In this document: positions 18,129-55,605 of the stretch, in pieces
Position numbering within the stretch: the first letter of the stretch is position 1
How the letters are laid out: each line of letters opens with the position of its first letter
Assembly (NCBI GenBank): GCA_963701855.1
Contig: CAVPBK010000006.1
Coordinates: 1,472,001-1,536,000, forward strand
Source: Nitrospirota bacterium
GTDB lineage: Bacteria > Nitrospirota > Nitrospiria > Nitrospirales > Nitrospiraceae
Length of the DNA: 64,000 nt
Direction: 5' to 3'
The notes under the pieces: generated by a model
Databases searched by the model: none
What the model was told of the DNA's origin: nothing
Seen by the model: only the letters and a program-made list of their open reading frames with translations
Position numbers and translations under genes: made by a program

Positions 18129-18204
<76 letters not shown>

Positions 18205-18524: not shown

Positions 18525-18881
18525 TTACCCAGCGACCTTGTCCAATTTCCCGGTGATCCTCGTACGGACTGTCCCTCGCCGTCGCCCACTGGGAGCCTTG
18601 CGAACCGTGACTTCTACGTCTTGGCCTAACAGGGAAAGAAAGTGAATGAGGCGTTCGATAGAGAATCCCGCCATCTGACCGGCGAGGAGTTTTGAGACCT
18701 TAGCCTGGTCGATCCCTAGTTGAGCCGCCGCTTCGACCTGTTTCCACCCCCGCCTCTTGATGGTTTCTTGAAGCGCTTGAAGCAGACCGCTTTTCAGAAT
18801 TAGTTCTGCGGACTTTTCCTCTGAGAACCCCAAGTCCCTAAATACACTCCCGCTGCCTTTAGTGACTGTCGCGCGTGTCAT
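18525..18881 (-). CDS. higA: XRE-family HTH antitoxin (HigA-like)
   Basis: GSGSVFRDLG, QVEAAAQLGIDQAKVSKL, FSIERL; 4-nt overlap with the toxin gene. Confidence 0.85.
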   Translation of the reverse strand: MTRATVTKGSGSVFRDLGFSEEKSAELILKSGLLQALQETIKRRGWKQVEAAAQLGIDQAKVSKLLAGQMAGFSIERLIHFLSLLGQDVEVTVRKAPSGRRRGTVRTRITGKLDKVAG

Positions 18882-19216
18882 AGCTGTTGCTCCTTCCTCC
18901 ACTTCAATAAGTCGGCATATCGGCCCTTGGCAAGTTGGATATCGACTTTCGGAGTCTTCTGAGAGCGCTTCTCGAAGACATGCAGCACGTAGATCGCCTC
19001 CTCAAGCTTGGCGACGTAGAGAACCCGATAGGTCCCGCTTTCTTCCCAGACGCGGATCTCCTGCACACCGGCCCCAACCGTTGGCATGGGCTTCCAATCA
19101 TCCGGTTCTTTTCCTTGCTGTACCTTGAACAGTTGATGCCCCGCGGCTTCCCTGGCATTTTCGGGAAGCTCCCGCATGTCCTCCCGAGACGATCCGACGA
19201 AATGAACCGGCTTCAT
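18878..19216 (-). CDS. higB: RelE/HigB (Gp49-like) toxin
   Basis: PDDWKPMPTVGAGVQEIR, YRVLYV, VLHVFEKRSQKT; toxin-first order. Confidence 0.88.
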   Translation of the reverse strand: MKPVHFVGSSREDMRELPENAREAAGHQLFKVQQGKEPDDWKPMPTVGAGVQEIRVWEESGTYRVLYVAKLEEAIYVLHVFEKRSQKTPKVDIQLAKGRYADLLKWRKEQQL

Positions 19217-19403: not shown

Positions 19404-19430
19404 GGGCCGTAGGTTCGACCCCTACACGGC
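19404..19430 (+). repeat. Short copy of tRNA-Lys 3' part (att remnant)
   Basis: GGGCCGTAGGTTCGACCCCTACACGGC identical to the tRNA-Lys T-arm region. Confidence 0.8.
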
Positions 19431-19455: not shown

Positions 19456-20451
19456 ATGTTCATGAAATTAATGCTTTGTAATATCGGGTGGCCAACCAAG
19501 TACGAAGGCTCCTTTCTTAAGGGTAGTCATGAATTCATAAAGAAACACAAAGGGGACGGATCGGAACGATGGAATTTCAAGAAGTTTCCGGACGGCAAGG
19601 TGTATGGATACATCAGGGGAATGGGAGGAAAGAGCCACTCTCCTCCTCAAGTGTCTGCAAATCTACAGAGTGGATGGACAATCCTTTACTATGCAAAAGA
19701 TCCCGATGATCAGATCCTAAAGTTTGTCGGATTCTATCGAAATGCTACTGTTTATTCTCGGTGGCGAGACCATCCAATCGATAAGGCCATTCGAGGAGAG
19801 ACTGAAAAGCATGTGTACTGCGCAACAACTTCCGCTCGTCAGGCGATATTGTTTCCGGAAGATAGGCGCCCGGTTCTCGGGAAAGGCTTTGGCCAAGCGG
19901 GCTTTGTTTATCTCACAAACCCGAAGACTCGAAAGATATCCAGGGGAAATGCAAGCCTCTACAAGCGAGTCCTCAGCCACCTAAAGGGCCGTCTTCCCCA
20001 CCCAGTAGACGACAAGAAAGTGAGGAGGCGTGCTTCGCCAACCACTATTGATCAGGAGCACCGCGAGGCTGTGGAAAAGGTGTCGATGTCATTTGTAACG
20101 CGCCAGCTCCGGAGGGAAGGATTTTCAGTGAAGGATATCTCACGGGAGAAAATCGGATTCGATCTCCAGTGCGCGCGAGGCGCAGATGTTGTGTATGTGG
20201 AAGTTAAAGGGACAGCTGGAACTGAACCCAGGTTTATCATCACTAAAAACGAGATCGAGTTTATGGAAAAAGACCCGTCTGCAATAATCGCCATCGTCAC
20301 CACTGCACTTGCTCAGCCAATGCTCCACGCTCTAAAGGGATTGAATATTCAGAAGGCATATAATTTAAGGCCTCTCCAGCTCGAGGCCATACCTCGCCTC
20401 AATAATTCGCACATAATTACTCGCAGGAAAAAGATGTTTAACCTGCCTTAG
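19456..20451 (+). CDS. DUF3883 (NOV-type PD-(D/E)xK) nuclease with an uncharacterised N-terminal domain
   Basis: C-terminal VE..., GFDL, YVEVKGT, ITKNE motifs; lower GC. Confidence 0.78.
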   Translation: MFMKLMLCNIGWPTKYEGSFLKGSHEFIKKHKGDGSERWNFKKFPDGKVYGYIRGMGGKSHSPPQVSANLQSGWTILYYAKDPDDQILKFVGFYRNATVYSRWRDHPIDKAIRGETEKHVYCATTSARQAILFPEDRRPVLGKGFGQAGFVYLTNPKTRKISRGNASLYKRVLSHLKGRLPHPVDDKKVRRRASPTTIDQEHREAVEKVSMSFVTRQLRREGFSVKDISREKIGFDLQCARGADVVYVEVKGTAGTEPRFIITKNEIEFMEKDPSAIIAIVTTALAQPMLHALKGLNIQKAYNLRPLQLEAIPRLNNSHIITRRKKMFNLP

Positions 20452-20610: not shown

Positions 20611-21444
20611 ATGTCTGAAAAGAAATCTAATCTTCTTCCCGATTACGAACGACCGCCTGTAATCGAAGTGGTTTATGGCATGCAGTTTTCCCCGCTGATT
20701 GAACTGCGCACCCCACAGATCGGTCTTTTATGGCAAACAATCAAGGCTGATTACCCCAAGTTTAAAGAAATGCCAGTTCTCGCTCCCGTCATCGAGCGTT
20801 TCGATCAAGAGGGGAAAACCGAGCAGCCTACACTTGAGTTTCTTCAGGAAGCACCTCTTCCTCGGATGTTTTTCTTGGATGCCCACGAAAATTGGGTAAT
20901 GCAAATTCAGAATGATAGGTTTCTCCATAATTGGAAACGAGTTAACGATGACGACGTTTATCCAAGATATATTGCTGTCTCAGGAAAGTTCTTCCAGGGG
21001 TGGGACAGATTTTGTGAATTTTGTCGATCTGAAGGCATTTCTAAGCCAAAGTTAAATCAATTGGAATTGACGTATATCAATCACATACCCGTTCGTGCGA
21101 ACAGTACCATTGGAGACGAGATTACGGCGATATTCCCAGACATAGTTTGGCGAAAGAACCACGAATTTCTGCCGGTCCCAGAATCGCTTTCATGGAAAAC
21201 TTCTTTCCTCCTCCCAAACAACCAAGGCCGCTTACATGTTTCATTGCGTCATGCGATGCGCATAAAAGATAAGACCCCAACACTTCTCCTCGAACTCACA
21301 GCTAGAGGTATTCCTCAAACGCCCGAACTCCCTCAGATTATGGAATGGTTCTCGCTCAGTCGTGAATGGATAGTCAGGGGCTTCTCGGACCTGACTAATT
21401 CTGAGGTGCAGAAGAATGTGTGGGATCTGAAGACAAAGCTATGA
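20611..21444 (+). CDS. TIGR04255-family protein
   Basis: YERPPVIEVVYGMQF, QIQNDRFLHNW, YPRY, ELTYINHI. Confidence 0.8.
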   Translation: MSEKKSNLLPDYERPPVIEVVYGMQFSPLIELRTPQIGLLWQTIKADYPKFKEMPVLAPVIERFDQEGKTEQPTLEFLQEAPLPRMFFLDAHENWVMQIQNDRFLHNWKRVNDDDVYPRYIAVSGKFFQGWDRFCEFCRSEGISKPKLNQLELTYINHIPVRANSTIGDEITAIFPDIVWRKNHEFLPVPESLSWKTSFLLPNNQGRLHVSLRHAMRIKDKTPTLLLELTARGIPQTPELPQIMEWFSLSREWIVRGFSDLTNSEVQKNVWDLKTKL

Positions 21445-22136
21445 CTGAGTACGCGACTGAAGATAGTACAACAAGAAATAGGCACGCTGGCTCACTTTTT
21501 AGGCCGCTATACAAGATGGCTTCGGCCTTAGAAGAACCCAATGAGTATCAACGCAGGCTAGTTTCCTTACCAGGAGCTACTCTATCTTCTGTAGTCACTC
21601 ACCGAGTTGCATCAAGTCCTGATGTCTGGGGTGGGCAAGGAACAATTACGACATCACAATACGCACCCAACGTTTCTAATGCGACTGTCACGGTTGCAAC
21701 CAGCTTTGCTCATTTAATTGCGACGGAATATCTTGATTCTAGGAACATTGCCATTTCAAAGTTTGGCCTTGGCGTACGCAATGTTTTGTGGACTACCGAG
21801 CCGATTGAAGTTCCTGAAAATGCACCAGCGCATGCTCAGGCACGAAGCGTTCTTTTATCAGACGAGGTTCTAACGTTTTGCTCTCGAGAGCAGATCTTCA
21901 ATCATTTTCATCGCGCCCTTCGATTAGCTCAACAATCCTTTCTTGACCTAAAGAATATCGAAGTTGAAATTGAAAACGACCCAGAGTCTGAGGGTGAATG
22001 GCTAGTGATAGTTGTCCAAATCCATGGTGAAATAGGCAAAGTCCTTGATATGTACGATGCTTACACAAGGAAATTTGTTCGGGTAGTTCCTTGGCCGGCC
22101 CTGGACAAGATACGACTAATTTACGACTTCGTCTGA
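21441..22136 (+). CDS. Hypothetical protein, putative antitoxin (long Ser/Thr-rich N-terminus, compact C-terminal domain)
   Basis: ATGA overlap with the TIGR04255 gene; C-terminal IEVEIENDPESEGEWLVIVV. Confidence 0.6.
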   Translation: MTEYATEDSTTRNRHAGSLFRPLYKMASALEEPNEYQRRLVSLPGATLSSVVTHRVASSPDVWGGQGTITTSQYAPNVSNATVTVATSFAHLIATEYLDSRNIAISKFGLGVRNVLWTTEPIEVPENAPAHAQARSVLLSDEVLTFCSREQIFNHFHRALRLAQQSFLDLKNIEVEIENDPESEGEWLVIVVQIHGEIGKVLDMYDAYTRKFVRVVPWPALDKIRLIYDFV

Positions 22137-22138
22137 TT

Positions 22139-22582
22139 GTGGACCCCAAGAAATTCTTAGAGCTAGCGCAAGTGCTTGCGCTTGAGACACCTCAAGCCTC
22201 AAAACTCAGAACTGCCACAAGTCGTGCGTACTACGCAGCATATAACGTTAGCGTCGAGACGTTAGATGGTATGGGATTTCGAATAGACCGTTCTGGAAAT
22301 GGCCACGGACAAGTTCAGAATTTACTTGGCAATAGTAAAAACGAGGATCTTAAGAAAATCAGTAGTGACCTGGGAAGCTTGCTTACTAATAGGATAGGTG
22401 CAGATTACCGGATGGATGACCCGAGAGCAGAAAACCCGACCAACGTGAAGGCGCACGTGCTGCACGCAAGTAGAATCATTCAAACACTGGAGCGGTGTTG
22501 CGGAGGCCCCAATAGAAACGACATTATCCAGGCAATAAAGGACTATGGCCAATTGATCAAAGGTGCTGGGCAAAAAGGATAG
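22139..22582 (+). CDS. HEPN-domain protein (UPF0332-like)
   Basis: RTATSRAYYAAY, GHGQV, RIGADY; GTG start 2 nt after the upstream stop. Confidence 0.75.
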   Translation: MDPKKFLELAQVLALETPQASKLRTATSRAYYAAYNVSVETLDGMGFRIDRSGNGHGQVQNLLGNSKNEDLKKISSDLGSLLTNRIGADYRMDDPRAENPTNVKAHVLHASRIIQTLERCCGGPNRNDIIQAIKDYGQLIKGAGQKG

Positions 22583-22773
22583 AACCCGCCTCTATTCGCA
22601 CTCGGTTCTGAGAATCTCAACACCCCACTCCACCCTACCTTAGGAAAATAACAGCTATCGAGAAATAAAAGAGCGCCATTCTGCCTATTTCAGCAGCAGC
22701 GGCCCCGTTTGCGCTGATCTTCAGGGAGAAGTAAGCTAACTGCGCTTGCTGTTCCGTTTCCAGGAGGCTCGCC

Positions 22774-23229
22774 ATGTGGGCTGTCTTCATCTTCTTGCTC
22801 CTGCTGCTGCCACTGCCTCTCTCCGTGCACGCGGAACATCTCGGCGAGTTGAGCGCGAATCCGTTCAATCCTAATTCCACATCCAATCCCTTCGGAGCCG
22901 GAAGCCCCTTCAAGCCGGACGGCCTGAACAATCCCTTCAGTCCCTACAGCAGTCCGTTTAGTAATCAATCGGCGACGAATCCATTCGCCACCGACGCGCC
23001 TCGGCTCCTTGCTCGTCTCTCTGGTCCGTCTGGTCTCTTTGGTTTCTCTGGCGATTTTCCGGTCCGGTCAACAAAACAGACCAAATAGACCAGATAAACG
23101 AGATAGACCAGTTTCGTATCTTCGTTCTCGCCGGACTCAATCAACAATCCCTTCGGCGCAGGGAATCCCTACAGCCCCAGCAGTCCCACGAATCCCTACG
23201 GCCGCGGCCTGCGAATCGAAGGACGCTGA
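22774..23229 (+). pseudogene. NPY/NPF-repeat secreted protein gene interrupted by a hairpin element (copy 1)
   Basis: Signal peptide + SANPFNPNSTSNPFGAGSP..., insert ~23008-23120, repeats resume to GLRIEGR-stop. Confidence 0.75.
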
Positions 23230-23286
23230 TCCAGCCGTTGAACAGCTCCACGTGATCTCATGGATGCTTGATACCTTGGCCTTACA

Positions 23287-34597: not shown

Positions 34598-35755
34598 ATG
34601 AATCCTGCTGATTTTACAGAGGAAAAGAATGGCCAATTAATTAAGACCCAGCGTGACTATTGGGCATTTCTCCCGAATCCCCTTCCTCCCCAGCTCACGC
34701 TGAGCTGGGATTTGGTGAACCAACTTTCTGAGGCCGATCGGGCGCTCAGCGAACTCGCAGGAACAGCGCGCACCTTACCCAACCCACACTTGTTAATAGG
34801 GCCGTTCATCAGACGCGAAGCCGTGCTCTCCAGTCGCATCGAGGGCACCCAAGCGTCTCTGTCCGATCTTCTGTTTTTTGAAGCGTCAGGATCGGTCGAT
34901 CCGAAAGCCCCGGATGCTCGGGAGGTAGCCAATTATGTGAAAGCGATGGAATACGGATTGGTGCGTCTGAAGAAGTTTCCGCTCAGCCTCCGCTTTATCA
35001 GAGAAGTGCACGAGCATCTCATGCATGATGTACGCGGGGAACATTTGACCCCCGGAGAATTTCGCCGCTCCCAGAATTGGATTGGCCCAGATCGCTGCAC
35101 GCTGATGGACGCCACATACGTTCCACCTCCGGTCGAAGAAATGGAACAAGCCTTAGGCCAATTCGAGGCCTACTTGCATGCGCCCTCAACGGTGCCTCTC
35201 CTGATTCGCCTCGCAGTCATCCATTACCAATTTGAGGCGATTCATCCGTTCCTGGACGGCAATGGCAGAATCGGACGACTCCTCATTACCCTTTTGCTAT
35301 GTAAAGAGGGCGCTCTCCCGGAACCGTTGTTGTATTTAAGCGCCTACTTTGAACGCTACCGGAATGAGTATTACCGTCTTCTTCTGGCTGTGAGCCAGTC
35401 GGGCAAGTGGATCGACTGGATCTCGTTCTTTCTCCGGGGAGTCGCTGAACAATCACGAGACGCGCTGGTTCGTTCTGATCAATTACTTCAATTGTGGAAG
35501 AACTATCGCGGCGAGTTCCAGTCAGCTCGATCGTCGGCGCTCCAACTTCGCTTGGTGGACCAGCTGTTTGCGTACCCCGCAATTACCGCAAACCAGGCTG
35601 CAAAGCTGTTAAAGGTAACCCATCGCTCGGCTCAGTTGAACATTGAAAAACTGATTCGCAAGGGGATTCTCAAAGAGGCCACTGGCAAGCAGCGCAACCG
35701 AGTGTTTATCGCTCCGCAAATCGTGAAGATCATCGAAGCGACACATGCAAGCTAA
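34598..35755 (+). CDS. Fic-family AMPylase with N-terminal inhibitory motif and C-terminal wHTH
   Basis: SSRIEG, HPFLDGNGRIGR. Confidence 0.93.
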   Translation: MNPADFTEEKNGQLIKTQRDYWAFLPNPLPPQLTLSWDLVNQLSEADRALSELAGTARTLPNPHLLIGPFIRREAVLSSRIEGTQASLSDLLFFEASGSVDPKAPDAREVANYVKAMEYGLVRLKKFPLSLRFIREVHEHLMHDVRGEHLTPGEFRRSQNWIGPDRCTLMDATYVPPPVEEMEQALGQFEAYLHAPSTVPLLIRLAVIHYQFEAIHPFLDGNGRIGRLLITLLLCKEGALPEPLLYLSAYFERYRNEYYRLLLAVSQSGKWIDWISFFLRGVAEQSRDALVRSDQLLQLWKNYRGEFQSARSSALQLRLVDQLFAYPAITANQAAKLLKVTHRSAQLNIEKLIRKGILKEATGKQRNRVFIAPQIVKIIEATHAS

Positions 35756-35961
35756 AGCAAGACAGCTAACAACTCACACGGCGAATGCTCGATTTAATCA
35801 GGGGGGCCTTCGCTGTGATAATTTTGTGCTACAAAGCTTCACAAACGACCGAATTCAGTAGAACCAATGGAATCAGTAGAACACTAGCAAGCCCATGATT
35901 TTCAACGATAAACGGGGAAACCTTCGCAACATCGAGCGGTTCGAATTATTGCCCTGCTGCC

Positions 35962-36007
35962 ACTCTTAATCAGCGGGCCGTAGGTTCGACCCCTACACGG
36001 CCCACCA
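35962..36007 (+). repeat. tRNA-Lys 3' half duplication (att site)
   Basis: ACTCTTAATCAGCGGGCCGTAGGTTCGACCCCTACACGGCCCACCA, exact. Confidence 0.92.
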
Positions 36008-36235
36008 AACCTCGCTTGCGCGTGCCGGCGGCTATTCAGGCGAAGCCTCTCTTCATTGACGCCGCCGGATAACCCCCTCCAGTAGACCTGTCTTTGTAGG
36101 CAGTAAAACAGAGAAAATATATTTTTCTGCCCCCCTGCTGGGCTTTGAATCTAACAGCCTGTGGAAAAACTATGTTGGTTTTGCTGGTCTATCTGGCTTC
36201 TCTGGTTCTTGTGGTGGGGCATCCGATCCGGGCAA

Positions 36236-42678: not shown

Positions 42679-43183
42679 GGTGACCTCCCGGGCAATTAAT
42701 CCTGAGAACTCGAATTGTAGAGATGGAGAGCCTCTTTGGTGAATCCGTTACGCACTCTCTACAGTTTCTACTCTACCCGCTCCGAAGAGTGAGGAGAACT
42801 GAGACGATTACTAGGTTTGTCCCTGTGCAATGTCGTAGATGTGACAGACGTGTTACTTCATCCAGCATAGTCGCTGAGCAGGGCTCCTAGTAGGAGCTCC
42901 AATGCACGGCTCTCATGGATTCTTTCCTTCGACAGGTTATTGGGGTGGTGCTTGTCGTCGTTTCGAATGTATCGACTTTCGAGAAGAATATCTGGTGCCG
43001 GAGAAACTGTTCGAGTTAACGGGTGAAAGTGGAAGAGTGGCCTGAATCACCGGCTGCGTTTGGATTCTAAGATGGATAAACCGGGACATTCTACTTTTCC
43101 TGCAGCGCCTGACCCGCTAGCACTGTTCTCCATGCGGGGAGTAGCCTGAGCCCACTGGTTGTTCTCCTGTTCGGATGAGCGCC

Positions 43184-43633
43184 ATGCGGAATGTCTTCTT
43201 CCTTCTCCTGCTGCTACTGCCGCTCTCCGTCCACGCGGAGGATATCGGCGAGCTGAGCGCGAATCCGTACAATCCTGATTCCACGTCCAATCCCTTCGGG
43301 GCTGGAAGTCCCTTCAAGCCGGACGGCCTGAACAATCCCTTCAGCCCCTACGGCAGTCCCTTCAGCAATCAATCCGCGACAAATCCCTTCGTTACCGATG
43401 CGCCTCGGCTCCTTGCTCGTCTCTCCGGTCTGTCTGGTCTCTTTGGTTTCTCTGGTTATTTTCCGGTCCGGTCAACAAGACAGACCAAATAGACTAGATA
43501 AACGAGATAGACCAGTTTCGTTTCTCCGTTCTCGCCGGACTCAATCAACAACCCCTACGGCGCCGGAAATCCTTACAGCCCCAGCAGTCCCACGAATCCC
43601 TACGGACGCAACCTTCGAATTGAAGGACGCTGA
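43184..43633 (+). pseudogene. NPY/NPF-repeat gene copy 3, interrupted by hairpin element
   Basis: Same structure and junctions as copy 1. Confidence 0.75.
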
Positions 43634-43857
43634 TCCAGCCGCTGAACCGCTTCGCGTGACCTCATGGCTGCTTGACACCTCCCTACGGACGGCCTAGCCT
43701 TGCCGATCATGCCGGGAGCACGTTACCAAACCTTCCGTCTGGGTGATCGCTCTGAACTACTTACAGAGCAGTTGCTGTCTGCCTTTGCATTCACAACCCG
43801 CGTTCCAGGGACCGGGAAACGGGGACATTCTACTTGTTCGGCATCGGCTGACATGCC

Positions 43858-44003
43858 AAGCGCATGATTGCCGATGTGATCCTGCCCGATGGACTGAATC
43901 TCAATCAGAAACTCGTCAAGCAATGGTGGTGCTGGTGGTACCGGAAATATGCGTCGGCAGATACCACGTTAGAGAGGCTAGAGGCTGAAGCGAGGGAGGG
44001 ACG
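43858..44003 (+). pseudogene. Thermonuclease (SNase-like) C-terminal fragment
   Basis: IADVILPDGLNLNQKLVKQWWCWWYRKYA...EAEARE. Confidence 0.7.
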
Positions 44004-44052
44004 GAAGCAGAAGTGCGAGGACGCTAACGGGTTTATGGAAGCATCCGACCCG

Positions 44053-44358
44053 CTACGGATTTTTAGGAAAAACGCCCTTCTCTATGAGTTTTTTGTTGTA
44101 CGCGTCGGCGTCCATGGGGCAGAGAAAGAGGTCTCTAACTTCTTTTAGAGTCTCAAGCCGAAGCTGCATTCTCATTGGCTTCAGAAGTGTGTCCCCATAT
44201 GTCTTGTAGTTAGAACCATGGGAAGTATAGGTGTAGGCCCCAGTCCTCTTGCCGTTATACTCGTGATAAAAATATTTGTGGCTTGATTTAGCAGGATCTA
44301 GCACAAACCCTTTTTGGGGAAGAGTGCTTTCGATCTTATCCCGAGGAACCTGAGACAT
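44053..44358 (-). CDS. HicA-like toxin
   Basis: LPQKGF...SSHKYF...TSHG, basic 101 aa. Confidence 0.65.
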   Translation of the reverse strand: MSQVPRDKIESTLPQKGFVLDPAKSSHKYFYHEYNGKRTGAYTYTSHGSNYKTYGDTLLKPMRMQLRLETLKEVRDLFLCPMDADAYNKKLIEKGVFPKNP

Positions 44359-44360
44359 TC

Positions 44361-44771
44361 TCAGGCGGCCTCGGCTAGGAGATTTGAAAAAATGTTTTTC
44401 AAGCGGATGGCGTCGCCGATGACTTGGGAGTCCTCAAGGGATCGGTAGTACTGCCAGAAATGGACGATGTGGTGTTCTAAATCGAGAACAGCTTCTTCTA
44501 AACTTCCACCCGTCCCGACCACGTTAAGCGCTTCGTTTTCCGCGAAGAACCACGCACCATCTTGAGTAACGTTAATACCGATCGGTTTCGACGGCAAGTA
44601 AGTGTGGCCAGCAATCGTTAACTTCAACAGAGGAAATTTAAATGGCTTAAAGAGGGGTTCTGCTACCGTTGCCGCTTCCTCATAGGTCGGAGAGCCTGGT
44701 ATAGGACGGAAGTGCGCAGGAAATTCTCCAAGGATTTCATGAGCGCTACGCGTCGCGCCGACCATGGTCAT
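44361..44771 (-). CDS. HicB-like antitoxin with N-terminal extension
   Basis: DGAWFFAENEALNVVGTGGSLEEAVLDL matches the HicB G.(T/S).EEA pattern; no DNA-binding tail. Confidence 0.65.
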   Translation of the reverse strand: MTMVGATRSAHEILGEFPAHFRPIPGSPTYEEAATVAEPLFKPFKFPLLKLTIAGHTYLPSKPIGINVTQDGAWFFAENEALNVVGTGGSLEEAVLDLEHHIVHFWQYYRSLEDSQVIGDAIRLKNIFSNLLAEAA

Positions 44772-45469
44772 ATTTCCTCCCCCCTTATATAGTTGCGGTA
44801 CTCGTCCGTGATCATGCCCTCAAACATTTGTTTTGTTACGCTGTGGCTCTCTTCCAGATACGCCCCAATTTTACCAAAGACCAAATCCGATTGCATGGCA
44901 TAATCGAAATCCAAAAGGATGGCCTCGTGACTCTTGTCTTCCGCTAACATATGCTCGATGCGCGCGTTAATGATCCCGTTCCCAACCGGCGAGGCAAAGG
45001 CAAAATTCATCGTGGTGAAATTATCGGTAGCCGGGGGAGGTAACTGAAACCCCACCTTCAGGTATTCGCGCAACGGAATACTTCCTGCTTTAGGCACAAA
45101 CGGAATGGCGTTGACATAGCGCAGCCCCGTCCTCGTCAGCTTCTCGATTTTGAATGTTGTTCTAAAAATGGCCGCTATTCTTAGGACTTCCTCTTTGAAC
45201 GCGTCAAAACCGGGGTATTTCTTCGTGCTGTACGCGAGCTTGTTGATTGCGGTCATGATGGTCGCTTGATCATCCTCTTGCTTAAAATGATACAAGGCCA
45301 GTGCGGGGGCGTCTCCAGGTTGTAGCTTTGGGACATACACCTTTGGGTATTTATTGCGGACCAGCCGGAAGAATTCATCCCGGCGACATTCGACCGCCGG
45401 GTCTCCGGGGAAACGGATCTCAAAAGCAACGTCTATGAGGGGCTGATTGGGATACTGTTCTGCACTCAT
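44768..45469 (-). CDS. TIGR04255-family protein (second, divergent)
   Basis: YPNQPLIDVAFEIRF, KYPGFDAF, RTGLRYVN, LLDFD, FEGMITDE. Confidence 0.85.
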   Translation of the reverse strand: MSAEQYPNQPLIDVAFEIRFPGDPAVECRRDEFFRLVRNKYPKVYVPKLQPGDAPALALYHFKQEDDQATIMTAINKLAYSTKKYPGFDAFKEEVLRIAAIFRTTFKIEKLTRTGLRYVNAIPFVPKAGSIPLREYLKVGFQLPPPATDNFTTMNFAFASPVGNGIINARIEHMLAEDKSHEAILLDFDYAMQSDLVFGKIGAYLEESHSVTKQMFEGMITDEYRNYIRGEEI

Positions 45470-45866
45470 CGTTTAAAACAGCATGGGCTAGCCGAGGGCG
45501 TTTGTCTAGCAGAGATTGAAGGGAAGATTAGCCGATGAAACCCGATACAGTCAAAATAATTGCGCACCTCTTGTGATCTTTTCACAAAAGCTATGTGGAT
45601 CACCCCTAGAGCCTCTGCACTGTGTCTATCGCCGTACAGGTCGGGTGCCTTTCACCATCACCATTGTCAGAAACTGTGTCTCAACGGAGGGGTTCACCCC
45701 AGGTTCACCCCATTGAGGTGTGCTAATTTTGTGCGGCAATTCTTCACAAACAACCGAATTCAGTAGAAGCCATGGAATCAGTAGAAAGCCAGCAAGCTCA
45801 TGATGTTCAACGATAAACGGGGAAACCTTCGCAACATCGAGCGGTTCGAATCATTGGCCTTCTGCC

Positions 45867-45912
45867 ACTCTTAATCAGCGGGCCGTAGGTTCGACCCCTA
45901 CACGGCCCACCA
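45867..45912 (+). repeat. tRNA-Lys 3' half duplication (att site)
   Basis: Exact 46-nt copy ending in CCA. Confidence 0.92.
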
Positions 45913-45917
45913 AAAAA

Positions 45918-46190
45918 TCAACTACATAGCGAAGCACTAGCCGGAGAGTTATTGGCAGGTGTTATTACGGTGTTAGATTGGTAAGAATTTAGCTTCTTTG
46001 CTGCAAGGCGAAGATCAGCCTCGGAAACGGAATTGTACCGCTTGTGCATCTTCTCTGACTTGTGACCCACAATCTTCATCGCGGTCACGGTATCTACCCC
46101 TGCCCGTCTTAGATTCGTCGCTGCACAGTGCCGAAGGTCATGGAAACGCAAATTTTTGATCCCAGCCTTGCGGACAGCCGTACCAAATGA
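45918..46190 (-). pseudogene. Tyrosine integrase C-terminal fragment
   Basis: FHDLRH, VGHKS, KRY catalytic motifs; N-terminal part absent. Confidence 0.88.
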
Positions 46191-46268
46191 CCGTTGTTTG
46201 GCGATCCACTCCATGGCCGCTGTGCCCATATCCGCACTTCACCGAAGAGAACCCGTGAGGAAAACGCC

Positions 46269-47943: not shown

Positions 47944-48639
47944 ATGCCGAAACCACTCGTATCGTATCGCCCATTTTATGCCAGGACGCTTAAGGCAAAG
48001 AAGCTGAAGAAACTCGCATTCCTTTTTCGGCACTGGGATCGAGTGCTGTCAAAGGTAAGTGCGCCGTTAGCGAAACGGTGGCATGATCATCCATTCTGGT
48101 ACGGAGAGCGGAGTAACATTGGATGGCTTGCGCTTGCAGCTCATGAGTCAGGTCATATAGCCATTCAGGAACCATCGGTGACAAGATCTGGGAAAGCAGG
48201 CAGGAGCGATTTGTGGGTGATCCGACCGCCGCATATGTACATGTATGACTTTGAAGCAAAGCAGATAGAATTATCAATATCAGCATTTGCCAAAAATCCT
48301 CTTCCACTAAAACTGCCAAAGACGATTGAGGATTTGCTTCAAGAAGCGATACGCCAGTTAAAGAAAAAGGATAAAGAATATGATGCGCACACGGCAATCG
48401 GTCTAGTATTCCTGCCTCTCTATTCACGTAGTAAAGCGGACAGAAAAGAGCTTATCCGGTCAATCAACAATTTCAGGACTGCAATGCTGACGAAATATCT
48501 AAAGCAGCTAGGGGCAGACTTCCTGGCCTTACACATTCCTCCATATTCTTATGTGCAAAGTAATTCGCTGGACTATTCAGGAGTCCCTTCACCAGGGCTT
48601 GCTATAATTGGAAAAATTCAATGGTCCGCGTCGAAATGA
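47944..48639 (+). CDS. Hypothetical protein, PD-(D/E)xK nuclease-like
   Basis: QE...GRSDLWV...DFEAK spacing; low GC. Confidence 0.6.
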   Translation: MPKPLVSYRPFYARTLKAKKLKKLAFLFRHWDRVLSKVSAPLAKRWHDHPFWYGERSNIGWLALAAHESGHIAIQEPSVTRSGKAGRSDLWVIRPPHMYMYDFEAKQIELSISAFAKNPLPLKLPKTIEDLLQEAIRQLKKKDKEYDAHTAIGLVFLPLYSRSKADRKELIRSINNFRTAMLTKYLKQLGADFLALHIPPYSYVQSNSLDYSGVPSPGLAIIGKIQWSASK

Positions 48640-48659
48640 ATCTTCGACAAGCATATGTT

Positions 48660-48826
48660 CAATCTTCATTTGCATAGCCCTGCTCTTGCGGTACGAGAAC
48701 TGTACCGCCAGCTTCACCGGCTCCGTCGTGTCTGTCCTCGATGGCGACACCATCGAAGTTCTGCACTACACCTACCCTGAGCGTGTCCGCCTCAGTGGCA
48801 TTGACTGCCCTGAGAAGGGCCAAGCA
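48660..48826 (+). pseudogene. Thermonuclease N-terminal fragment
   Basis: VVSVLDGDTIEVL...RVRLSGIDCPEKGQA, then unrelated sequence. Confidence 0.75.
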
Positions 48827-49285
48827 AGCCGCTTCATCACTCGTCTCCGGCACAATATCTCTGATTCACAACCTTCGCCACCGCTGTTCCATTTTCCGTC
48901 CCAATCTATAAACTGTAATGACGGGACGGAAATAAAAACAGCCTCGCTATTCTGATCCTTGACACCTCCCCACGGATCGCCTAGCCCCCGTTCTCAAAGA
49001 CACCTACTGAATTTCAACTCACCCTCTCTCGTCTCGTTCCTGGCCAAGTGACTCGCCGCCAAAAAACAGGAAATCTCCGCGATCTGGTCACATTTGCTCA
49101 GCGAGCAAGTCCCCGGAGAGCGTAGCTTTATAGGCATACGTTTTTACAACTGAAGGAGAGAACCGAAGAGATTCCCGATGATACGAGACGAGTTCTGACC
49201 TATATAGACGAGAAGATGCTAGAGATTTTGAAATTCAAGGGTAGGCACCGTTCGATAAATAAGGATCGGACAATGGGGGCACGTG

Positions 49286-51993: not shown

Positions 51994-52011
51994 ACTCTTA
52001 ATCAGCGGGCC
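51994..52011 (+). repeat. tRNA-Lys anticodon-arm core (att remnant closing island 3)
   Basis: ACTCTTAATCAGCGGGCC, same start point as the other att copies. Confidence 0.72.
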
Positions 52012-54537: not shown

Positions 54538-54698
54538 CAAGGCGTGTTTTAAAAGACATCCGAGTGGTTGTCGCCTGTCATGAAGAAGGAAATGGTGCCA
54601 GGAACAGTTTCTAGCTGCCTTGCGTCGAGTTCCAGGCGAGAAGTAGGCTGGCGGTGAGAAAGAAAGGTTGAGGCTGAGGCTCAGTAAAGAGGCTCGCC

Positions 54699-55154
54699 AT
54701 GTGGGTTGTCTTCCTCCTTTTGCTCCTGCTGCTGCCACTGCCGTTCTCCATCCACGCGGAAGATCTCGGCGAGCTAAGCGCAAATCCGTTCAATCTTGAG
54801 TCCACGTCCAATCCATTCGGAGCCGGGAGCCCCTACAAGCCGGACGGCATCAACAATCCCTTCAGTCCCTACGGCAGTCCCTTCAGCAATCAATCAGCAA
54901 CGAATCCGTTCGCCACCGATGCACCTCGGCTCCTTGCTCGTCCCTCTGGTCTGTCTGGTCTCTTTGGTTTCTCTGGTTATTTTCCGGTCCGGTCAACAAG
55001 ACAGACCAAATAGACCAGATAAACGAGATAGACCAGTTTCGTTTCTCCGTTCTCACCAGTCTCGATCAAGAATCCCTACGGCGCAGGGAATCCCCACAGC
55101 CCCAACAGTCCCACGAATCTCTACGGTCGCGGCCTTCGAATTGAAGGACGCTGA
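54699..55154 (+). pseudogene. NPY/NPF-repeat gene copy 4, interrupted by hairpin element
   Basis: Same structure and junctions as copies 1 and 3. Confidence 0.75.
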
Positions 55155-55605
55155 TCCATTCGCTAAGCCGCTCCACGTGATCTCATGGCTGCTTGACACC
55201 TCAGTACTACACCGTAGCCACGGGTTTGCTGTCGTAGCCATCCCCGGCAGTGACCGACCGGCTAACTCCCATGAAGCGCACCGCTCGCGCCAGTGTCACT
55301 CCCGCCGCTCGTTCCTCTCCGGCACGCTGGCGATGGCCTCTGCCTGGCCCGAACGATTCATGAATACCTGCTACGTCGTCCGATCCTCTCGCCCGGCGGG
55401 GCTTTTCTCGTTCGGCCTCCTCGACGGACTGACAGTACGCCTGCGTCGGCCTTACTTGCGAGAAGCCCCGGCGGGCTTCGGTCTCGAACGTCTCGCGACG
55501 GCATTCATGAATAATCCTGGCTTACTTTTCCTCCGTGAACTGTGCGTTGGCGCTCCTTTTTCTGTGCGAGAGCCAACTTCGTTTCAACCAAGGAGGAAAC
55601 AAAGA

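Follow-up and report, generated by a model that had tools for sequence, protein, structure and literature searches.

Gene organization of the operon

We analyzed a 64,000-nt window of a Nitrospirota genome (contig CAVPBK010000006.1, positions 1,472,001 to 1,536,000) and focused on a three-gene operon at 44053..45469 of this window, which lies entirely on the minus strand and runs from a TIGR04255 gene through a HicB-fold gene to a likely HicA gene. A preliminary description of the same DNA had presented it as the second TIGR04255 operon of the window, with an exchanged toxin pair, and the operon at 20.6 kb (20614-22582) served as comparison. The genes and parts of the two operons are as follows.

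44768..45469, minus strand: TIGR04255 family protein, 233 aa, proposed chaperone-like third component (NCBIfam E 3.3e-29; AlphaFold2 (AF2) model; fold searches; complex model)
44361..44771, minus strand: HicB-fold putative antitoxin, 136 aa, without C-terminal DNA-binding domain (AF2; VIA-align; hhalign)
44652..44771, minus strand: residues 1-40 of this middle protein, an S/T/P-enriched segment predicted to be disordered, in which a weak pattern is specific to the clade (P18 74%, T28 63%; from predicted local distance difference test (pLDDT) scores, column conservation and composition)
44595..44651, minus strand: residues 41-59 of the middle protein, a confident beta-hairpin added before the HicB core (P47 89%, W49 60%), in the predicted TIGR04255 interface
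44053..44358, minus strand: 101-aa protein of the long type with an additional C-terminal part, likely an RNase toxin of the HicA family (Pfam; Atlas; His27)
20614..21444, plus strand: comparison operon, TIGR04255 protein of a different clade (NCBIfam E 4.6e-19; tree)
21441..22136, plus strand: comparison operon, middle gene, 231 aa, with a long S/T-rich N-terminal part and a C-terminal domain common to partners of HEPN genes; presumably MNT-like
22139..22582, plus strand: comparison operon, HEPN-type third gene, 147 aa (clusters with the third genes of loci L007, L008, L009 and L249, two of which match Pfam HEPN; PADLOC HEPN_IX E 0.046)

The three open reading frames were present where the preliminary description had placed them, and the operon is real. 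The stop of the TIGR04255 gene and the start of the HicB-like gene share ATGA (4-nt overlap), and the HicB-like and HicA-like genes are joined by TGA-GA-ATG (2-nt gap). The corresponding junctions at 20.6 kb are ATGA and TGA-TT-GTG, so that gene order and coupling agree between the operons, as had been claimed. The low similarity noted between the two TIGR04255 proteins was also borne out: both pass the family cut-off, yet BLASTP gave no significant alignment (best E 1.4). A promoter and terminator scan of the operon yielded signals at chance level, with no promoter or operator signal above chance. Contigs of related strains from four metatranscriptome runs (two studies) covered parts of the operon, one of them (550 nt) spanning both junctions; such contigs do not show transcription and were not used as evidence. 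Thermonuclease-like gene fragments were observed at 43864-44148 and 48608-48955, the former (Pfam SNase E 0.001) running, on the opposite strand, into the HicA-like gene at its 3' end.

Linkage of TIGR04255 with the HicB/HicA-like pair

Loci were collected in two directions. For the forward set, a genome search with a TIGR04255 alignment gave 91 loci; the best 80 were taken, and 75 of these had at least 730 nt downstream. The records were titled Nitrospirota, Planctomycetota, Acidobacteriota, Elusimicrobiota, Proteobacteria and others. A HicB-like gene stood next to TIGR04255 in all 75 loci with room, and a HicA-like gene was present in 73 of the 75, the HicA profile having been built from 58 of these same loci. 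For the reverse set, a metagenome search with the middle gene gave 149 loci, of which the best 80 were used; 5 were too short, and TIGR04255 lay directly upstream of the middle gene in 68 of the 75 evaluable loci. These counts include near-duplicate contigs, and the search patterns were derived from TIGR04255-linked genes, both of which lessen the weight of the linkage.

The seven reverse loci without an upstream TIGR04255 gene were inspected by eye. In two fusions (L138, L139), the HicB core has become attached in frame, through a deletion that removed the extension, to the C-terminal part of a TIGR04255 that is frameshifted; in three loci (L124, L125, L192) the middle gene is 5'-truncated; the remaining two (L144, L145) carry lone middle genes without a toxin. 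None of the exceptions is therefore an intact extended pair of the 44 kb clade lacking TIGR04255. The pair had been expected not to occur commonly without TIGR04255 while keeping its extension, and the 75 evaluable loci contained no intact pair of that kind in this clade. A middle-gene search of a second-phylum sample (251 genomes) returned 22 places in 19 genomes. All three strong matches were accompanied by TIGR04255; among the weak matches were short HicBs preceding HicA, with neither extension nor TIGR04255 (L201, L205-L209, L211, L212, L214, L216), and also extended forms of more remote relationship (L200, L202, L203, L217, L218). The operon is conserved and distinct from ordinary hicBA.

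Fold and conservation of the TIGR04255 protein

The 44 kb TIGR04255 protein matched the NCBIfam model at E 3.3e-29, with 102.4 bits over residues 5-226 against a cut-off of 30 bits, and the two window proteins were the only family members in the genome. Close homologues carry Nitrospira labels. The AF2 model (pLDDT 92.4, predicted TM-score 0.88) consists of two similar alpha/beta repeats of the beta-alpha-beta-beta-beta-alpha type, forming a tandem TBP-like saddle. In a fold search of solved structures, no chain reached Z 8; the top rows, all below this value, were the spermine synthase N-terminal domain, Med18/20, AdoMetDC, guanidino kinases, RepDE (Z 6.8, root-mean-square deviation (rmsd) 5.8, 163 aligned) and TBP (Z 6.4, rmsd 5.6, 152 aligned). 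The longest structural alignments, of 184 residues each, were to the guanidino kinase domains of taurocyamine kinase (Z 7.3, rmsd 4.3) and McsB (Z 7.0, rmsd 5.6). Since no solved chain reached Z 8, "TBP-like saddle" describes a shape and says nothing on function.

The idea of a fused SecB dimer found no support. The protein did not match a SecB family in Pfam or NCBIfam, although a family absent from these libraries could escape such a search, and SecB was neither among the 50 rows listed from the wide fold search nor in the Foldseek list. Profiles of the three operon proteins, compared with the sequences of solved structures, gave nothing below E 0.07, and the viral fold search with TIGR04255 returned one unnamed protein (E 1.2e-7, TM 0.54). 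Across 55 diverse TIGR04255 proteins there was no invariant residue, a pattern more in keeping with a binding protein than with an enzyme. Y85 and F216 alone reached 90%, and R-x-G-L-R-Y-x-N and L-D-x-D motifs, a late His, R113 and R117 were conserved in the majority.

The HicB-like middle protein and the HicA-like third protein

The AF2 model divides the middle protein into residues 1-40 (pLDDT 41-53) and residues 41-136 (pLDDT at least 90). The HicB-type core occupies residues 60-135 and adopts the partial RNase H fold of HicB (beta-beta-beta-alpha-beta: strands 64-71, 74-79 and 84-88, helix 91-111, strand 132-134). The VIA-align rows were led by 3k6q (Z 6.0, rmsd 2.7, 76 aligned), followed by the B. 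pseudomallei HicB domain 6g1c (Z 5.2, rmsd 2.0, 59 aligned) and HicB3 6u0i (Z 5.0, rmsd 2.2, 58 aligned); rows of double-stranded RNA-binding domains tied with the HicB rows within 1 Z. Comparison of the middle-protein profile with short HicBs by hhalign gave 96.7%, those short HicBs having been found with the same profile. Nothing follows the core at the C-terminus, and the chain ends with the folded core, in agreement with the earlier remark that a DNA-binding domain at the C-terminus is missing.

The preliminary description had also reported an N-terminal extension of about 65 aa. The extension exists, but it measures 59 aa and has two parts, the disordered residues 1-40 and the hairpin 41-59, and is not one tag; S/T content was 16% in the extensions versus 8% in the core. 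The antitoxin-before-toxin order, described as the reverse of canonical hicAB, was found as stated, but it is ordinary. The available text of Gerdes 2024 names hicBA without a DNA-binding domain as the most common bicistronic form (PMC10865869), so the surprise attached to this order falls.

The third protein matched Pfam HicA at E 0.008 (16.7 bits), below the 27-bit cut-off, and HicA matches at E<=0.05 were obtained for 25 of 59 relatives. Atlas gave 0.90 to HicA-named clusters, and His27 was retained in 57 of the 59 relatives. The third gene thus likely encodes a HicA-family toxin, judging from sequence comparison. Of the folds proposed earlier for the two downstream genes, the HicB-like one is supported by the model, whereas the HicA-like one is likely, on weak matches.

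Predicted binding of TIGR04255 to the antitoxin

Complex prediction with ESMFold2 and alignments gave the TIGR04255 and HicB-like proteins a score of 0.71, compared with 0.01 for the best of three controls; the score mark was reached by 116 of 157 solved pairs and 2 of 215 mismatched pairs. The runs agreed in at least 47% of contacts, with a partner pLDDT of at least 74. TIGR04255 is therefore predicted to bind the HicB-fold antitoxin directly. The modeled interface comprises, on the antitoxin side, the added hairpin 41-52, core strands 60-70 and 79-82 and the start of helix 1 (91-95), and, on the TIGR04255 side, residues 123-136, 176-181 and 221-233. Among the predicted contacts are F46, P47 and K62-I64 of the antitoxin and F124-V125 and 223-233 of TIGR04255. 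The absence of residues 1-40 from the confident contacts is evidence in neither direction. The extension had been described as an N-terminal tag; the confident part of the predicted interface is the folded hairpin plus core, not the disordered segment.

Diversity of TIGR04255 operons

The family occurred in 52 of 301 genomes from the same phylum, in 29 of 301 and 15 of 251 genomes of two others, and in none of 14 control genomes. We chose 77 loci by TIGR04255 alone, 75 of them with room downstream. The third genes of these 75 loci formed 11 clusters of at least two members (66 genes) plus singles. Library matches support the types HicA, HEPN and DUF7689 (E 2e-45) and, at a single locus each, PemK (E 1e-18) and HNH. 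R-S-H and QGD-CD motifs are present in the two largest cargo classes, which have no confirmed family; by these motifs we tentatively call them ART-like and MazF-like, labels that neither PDB sequence searches nor comparison with a true PemK confirmed. The commonest cargo pair (R-S-H, ART-like by this unconfirmed label) matched the C-terminal part of PADLOC PDC-M32A (best E 1.3e-6) and PDC-M32B (E 8.1e-5). A PADLOC search of 26 TIGR04255 proteins gave no match. The middle genes fall into unrelated clusters (HicB-like, helix-turn-helix (HTH), HEAT-like, PDC-M32A-like and others) and, across classes, mostly start with a variable N-terminal part; 13 loci with HTH-type middle genes retain TIGR04255. 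A script count of tight coupling (69 of 75) is inflated, as the script takes the nearest start codon and had no shuffle control; it was not used, and recurring gene clusters were relied on instead.

A tree of 77 TIGR04255 proteins was built with a quick method and Shimodaira-Hasegawa-like approximate likelihood ratio test (SH-aLRT) support, without bootstrap; loci without classified cargo (L021, L220, L229, L240, L251, L252, L258) were omitted and seven HicA-class rows added. The nine HicA-class rows formed one side of a branch (SH-aLRT 100), and cargo changed 17 times over the tree (minimum 11; shuffled mean 43.3; 0 of 200 shuffles as low). Cargo swaps have thus happened, with each TIGR04255 clade mostly keeping its cargo, and because cargo tracks the clades, the swaps are old. 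The two window operons belong to distant TIGR04255 clades and arrived on different islands. The preliminary description had seen one regulatory module, TIGR04255 plus an N-terminal tag, plugged onto unrelated RNase pairs. TIGR04255 does head operons with unrelated downstream pairs, but a tag sequence common to the classes was not found: the profile built from the extensions of the HicB class matched 57 of 72 N-termini of its own class versus 0 of 73 of other classes. Nor is the cargo confined to RNases, since HNH, DUF7689 and ART-like (label unconfirmed) genes also occur, and free plugging does not agree with cargo that follows the tree.

Members of the family were located in the temperate phages Dobby, VW-6S and SNW-1, next to the portal gene or between cI and the integrase, and a viral contig (L276) carries the same HicB/HicA cargo beside an integrase. 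In phage Dobby (L266:1090-2786), the TIGR04255 operon lies beside the portal gene, and the annotated gp01 starts at 1483, without the first 131 codons of the open frame. A search of E. coli DNA with a gammaproteobacterial operon gave no match. Four TIGR04255 genes (L220, L251, L252, L258) had no coupled downstream pair found by script. Where TIGR04255 is absent, at L200 and L302, antitoxin cores of two cargo classes are fused behind about 250 residues, with Gerdes class 8-like and PDC-M32A-like sizes; homology between the two fused N-terminal regions was not shown (E 0.17). At L286, a HEPN-type gene directly follows a relative of the 20.6 kb operon's middle gene.

Tandem tRNA-Lys islands

The operon lies in a region of tandem integrations, with the following features.

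18129..18204, plus strand: tRNA-Lys(CTT), integration site of the tandem islands
35962..36007, plus strand: 46-nt attachment (att) repeat, boundary between the island with the 20.6 kb operon and the island with the 44 kb operon
45719..45914, plus strand: att-proximal stretch of 196 bp with 92% identity to 35814-36009, where the first island ends
45867..45912, plus strand: att repeat at the end of the second tandem island, identical to the last 46 nt of tRNA-Lys(CTT)
45918..46229, minus strand: what remains of a tyrosine integrase (C-terminal part), immediately beyond the att repeat (Pfam Phage_integrase E 6.3e-13)

At least two tandem islands occupy the tRNA-Lys(CTT) site (window 18129-45912). 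The last 46 nt of the tRNA gene are repeated at 35962 and 45867, which places the two TIGR04255 operons on separate islands, and the 46-nt copy was not matched by chance (0 of 100 shuffles). The start of the 44 kb operon is 398 nt inside the repeat at 45867, consistent with the earlier statement that it sits just inside an att site. Its G+C content is 49.2%, compared with 55.6% for the genome. Further partial att copies were found at 19404-19430 (27 nt) and 51994-52011 (18 nt), together with a 47-nt copy on contig C7; the 33 open reading frames scanned contained no intact integrase. A stretch of about 510 bp occurs in three copies (22764-23276, 43180-43680 and 54689-55201; 88-89% identical). 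It is interrupted by an internal insert and codes for N-P-F/Y-G-S repeats and a signal peptide. Each TIGR04255 operon has one of the first two copies just beyond its 3' end (at 22582 and 44053, respectively). Island 1 also carries conflict-type cargo: a Gp49/RelE-like toxin with an HTH_37 antitoxin (18525-19216), a 331-aa protein with a NOV_C domain (19456-20451) and a Fic protein (34598-35755).

Discussion

We interpret the operon as a three-gene toxin-antitoxin (TA) system with TIGR04255 as a chaperone-like third component and a role in defence, a reading to which, arguing largely from analogy, we give an even chance. TIGR04255 would bind and stabilize the HicB-fold antitoxin and keep it able to hold the likely HicA RNase off. 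By analogy with the SecB-dependent toxin-antitoxin-chaperone (TAC) systems, the disordered residues 1-40 would make the antitoxin unstable when TIGR04255 is missing; TIGR04255 would act as a sensor, pulled away by phage infection, a phage protein or stress, so that the toxin is freed; and the outcome would be translation arrest that limits the phage. Order and coupling of the genes, linkage in both directions, the island setting and the variety of cargo in the family are observed, whereas the folds and the binding are predictions. The low G+C, the att-bounded island, the phage-borne members and the DefensePredictor listing fit defence cargo; that listing (Table S4) contains at least eight TIGR04255 proteins as "Predicted novel defense gene" (log-odds 4.7-9.3), and the main text does not name the family.

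Three-part TA control is known already from TAC, with Mycobacterium tuberculosis HigBAC, M. methanica HicAB-SecB, E. coli HigBAC and CmdTAC as examples in the available text of the reports (PMC5105189; bioRxiv 10.1101/2024.02.24.581848; PMC11618068); what would be new here is such control by TIGR04255. As described in PMC5105189, TAC systems use SecB and a variable C-terminal antitoxin extension. The operon resembles them in its three genes, in the sharing of one third component by unrelated TA families, in its prophage or island location and in an antitoxin with a variable extension, here predicted to be disordered. In contrast, TIGR04255 is not detectably SecB-like, its model being a TBP-like tandem saddle; the extension is N-terminal rather than C-terminal, the 44 kb antitoxin ending with a folded core that runs to residue 136; the order is third gene, antitoxin, toxin; and the predicted contacts include the folded antitoxin core.

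Several observations weigh against the three-gene reading. Residues 1-40 are not among the confident contacts and so lend nothing direct to the proposed chaperone-addiction step. Extended HicB/HicA pairs that are more distantly related exist without TIGR04255 (L200, L202, L203, L217, L218): an extended HicB-like and long HicA-like pair is coupled behind DUF6941 (L217:930-2021, E 9e-14), another stands behind a DUF3467-like gene (L218:1043-2078, E 0.005), two have no coupled upstream gene (L202, L203), and at L200:1483-2544 the HicB core is fused behind about 250 extra residues in a 353-aa protein, and the toxin of this locus matches the HicA-like profile at 2e-22. DUF6941 and the DUF3467-like gene are possible other third components. 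Relatives of the middle gene at 21.4 kb, with an extension of about 47 aa, lie behind a large unrelated gene instead of TIGR04255 (L285, L286). Among 18 places of the largest cargo class picked by toxin, 13 had TIGR04255, 1 had a fused 374-aa antitoxin and 4 had neither. Taken together, the distant pairs, L285/L286 and 5 of these 18 places indicate that an extension does not always need TIGR04255. In addition, the third-protein profile scored 5.7% in hhalign against eight short HicAs, which leaves the HicA call weak, and PADLOC returned no match for the three operon proteins.

That all confident contacts fall in the folded part would also suit a fixed subunit, that is, a TIGR04255 acting as co-antitoxin or scaffold, possibly as phage sensor, which docks on the folded antitoxin while the disordered N-terminus serves as a linker or degron without chaperone dependence. 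The C-terminal tail of TIGR04255, which is part of the interface, is conserved in the 44 kb clade, cargo co-diverges with the TIGR04255 clades, and TIGR04255-HicB fusions without the extension exist (L138, L139), although their TIGR04255 part is frameshifted. As the variable N-terminal parts of unrelated antitoxin folds are left unexplained, we regard a fixed subunit as unlikely, though deserving of serious attention. The saddle could also make TIGR04255 a nucleic-acid-binding regulator that supplies the operon control a HicB without a DNA-binding domain cannot; its gene invariably comes first, R113 and R117 occur in the majority of the proteins, and TBP and RepDE are among the fold rows (Z 6.4 and 6.8). 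Z values under 8, however, may reflect only a common arrangement; the 13 loci with HTH-type middle genes still keep TIGR04255, class 2 hicBA operons manage without it in the available account (PMC10865869), and the promoter and operator scan stayed at chance. A regulator of this kind is accordingly improbable in our estimation.

A further alternative, in which TIGR04255 acts on the S/T-rich extension as a kinase, ligase or protease-like enzyme and switches the antitoxin by this modification, would account for the S/T enrichment, the guanidino kinase domains as the longest structural alignments, and the majority-conserved R-x-G-L-R-Y-x-N and L-D-x-D motifs and late His. The motif residues could, however, be structural, Z is again below 8, and the scarcity of fixed positions in the 55 proteins, Y85 and F216 at 90% and none invariant, speaks against catalysis; we hold an enzyme to be distinctly improbable. 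An ordinary class 2 hicBA module with TIGR04255 as a mere island neighbour would draw on how common the hicBA order without a DNA-binding domain is, but it is at odds with the linkage in 75 of 75 and 68 of 75 loci across many phyla, the overlapping stop and start codons and the predicted binding, and is strongly disfavoured, with hardly any probability left to it.

Among hicBA modules, the available text of Gerdes 2024 (PMC10865869) gives HicB sizes of 63-103 codons for class 2 and 331-356 for class 8, with a class 8 HicA of about 95 aa. The operon shares with class 2 the position of hicB before hicA and the lack of a DNA-binding domain; its toxin resembles the HicA type of about 95 aa of class 8, and the toxin of the class 8-like locus L200 matches. 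It differs from both in a HicB of 130-150 aa (136 aa at 44 kb), outside the class 2 size, and from class 2 in layout, which there comprises two genes; none of the 14 hicBA classes in the Fig. 2 legend of that paper has a coupled upstream TIGR04255 gene. DS-42 (PRO1), a validated three-gene E. coli anti-phage system (-log efficiency of plating 1.1 on Bas1 in one supplement row of PMC13092281), resembles the operon in a 238-aa first gene, a 4-nt overlap, a middle gene with an S/T-rich N-terminal part and a nuclease-type third gene, and UniRef assigns the TIGR04255 label to a relative of its first protein with 60% identity. Its effector is an MBL hydrolase, in contrast to the 101-aa HicA-like protein here. 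DS-42 protein 1 did not match the TIGR04255 model, and against our own profiles hhalign gave 0.7% and 0.6% with a shallow 16-row alignment, so that homology is unproven. PDC-M32 is similar in that the commonest TIGR04255 cargo pair matches the PDC-M32A C-terminal part and PDC-M32B, but PDC-M32A is one 375-aa protein and is not the cargo of the 44 kb operon. The literature searched, in which subscription papers were mostly outside coverage, held no description of the TIGR04255 operon class and no mention of TIGR04255 in a main text; searches of it for non-SecB or TBP-like third components, tripartite TA systems with an N-terminal extension, and DUF3467, DUF6941 or DUF7689 returned no relevant description.

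At the level of the family, we tentatively propose, placing the probability somewhat short of even, that TIGR04255 marks out a class of anti-phage systems with three parts, widespread and so far undescribed. In these, a TBP-like saddle protein would sense infection, hold antitoxins of unrelated folds via N-terminal additions and control five or more effector types that are likely or confirmed by the library (HicA, HEPN, PemK, HNH, DUF7689) plus two large unnamed ones, as a mirror-image, non-SecB reinvention of the TAC logic; the validated DS-42 might be a distant member, with DUF6941 and DUF3467 as additional exchangeable third components. The TIGR04255 family thereby gets a testable role. If TIGR04255 controls unrelated antitoxins, it would be a second scaffold beside SecB for phage-triggered toxins, and its operons would form a list of candidate new toxins. 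It would also offer one answer to a question left open in the available text of Gerdes 2024 (PMC10865869), namely how hicBA modules without a DNA-binding domain are controlled.

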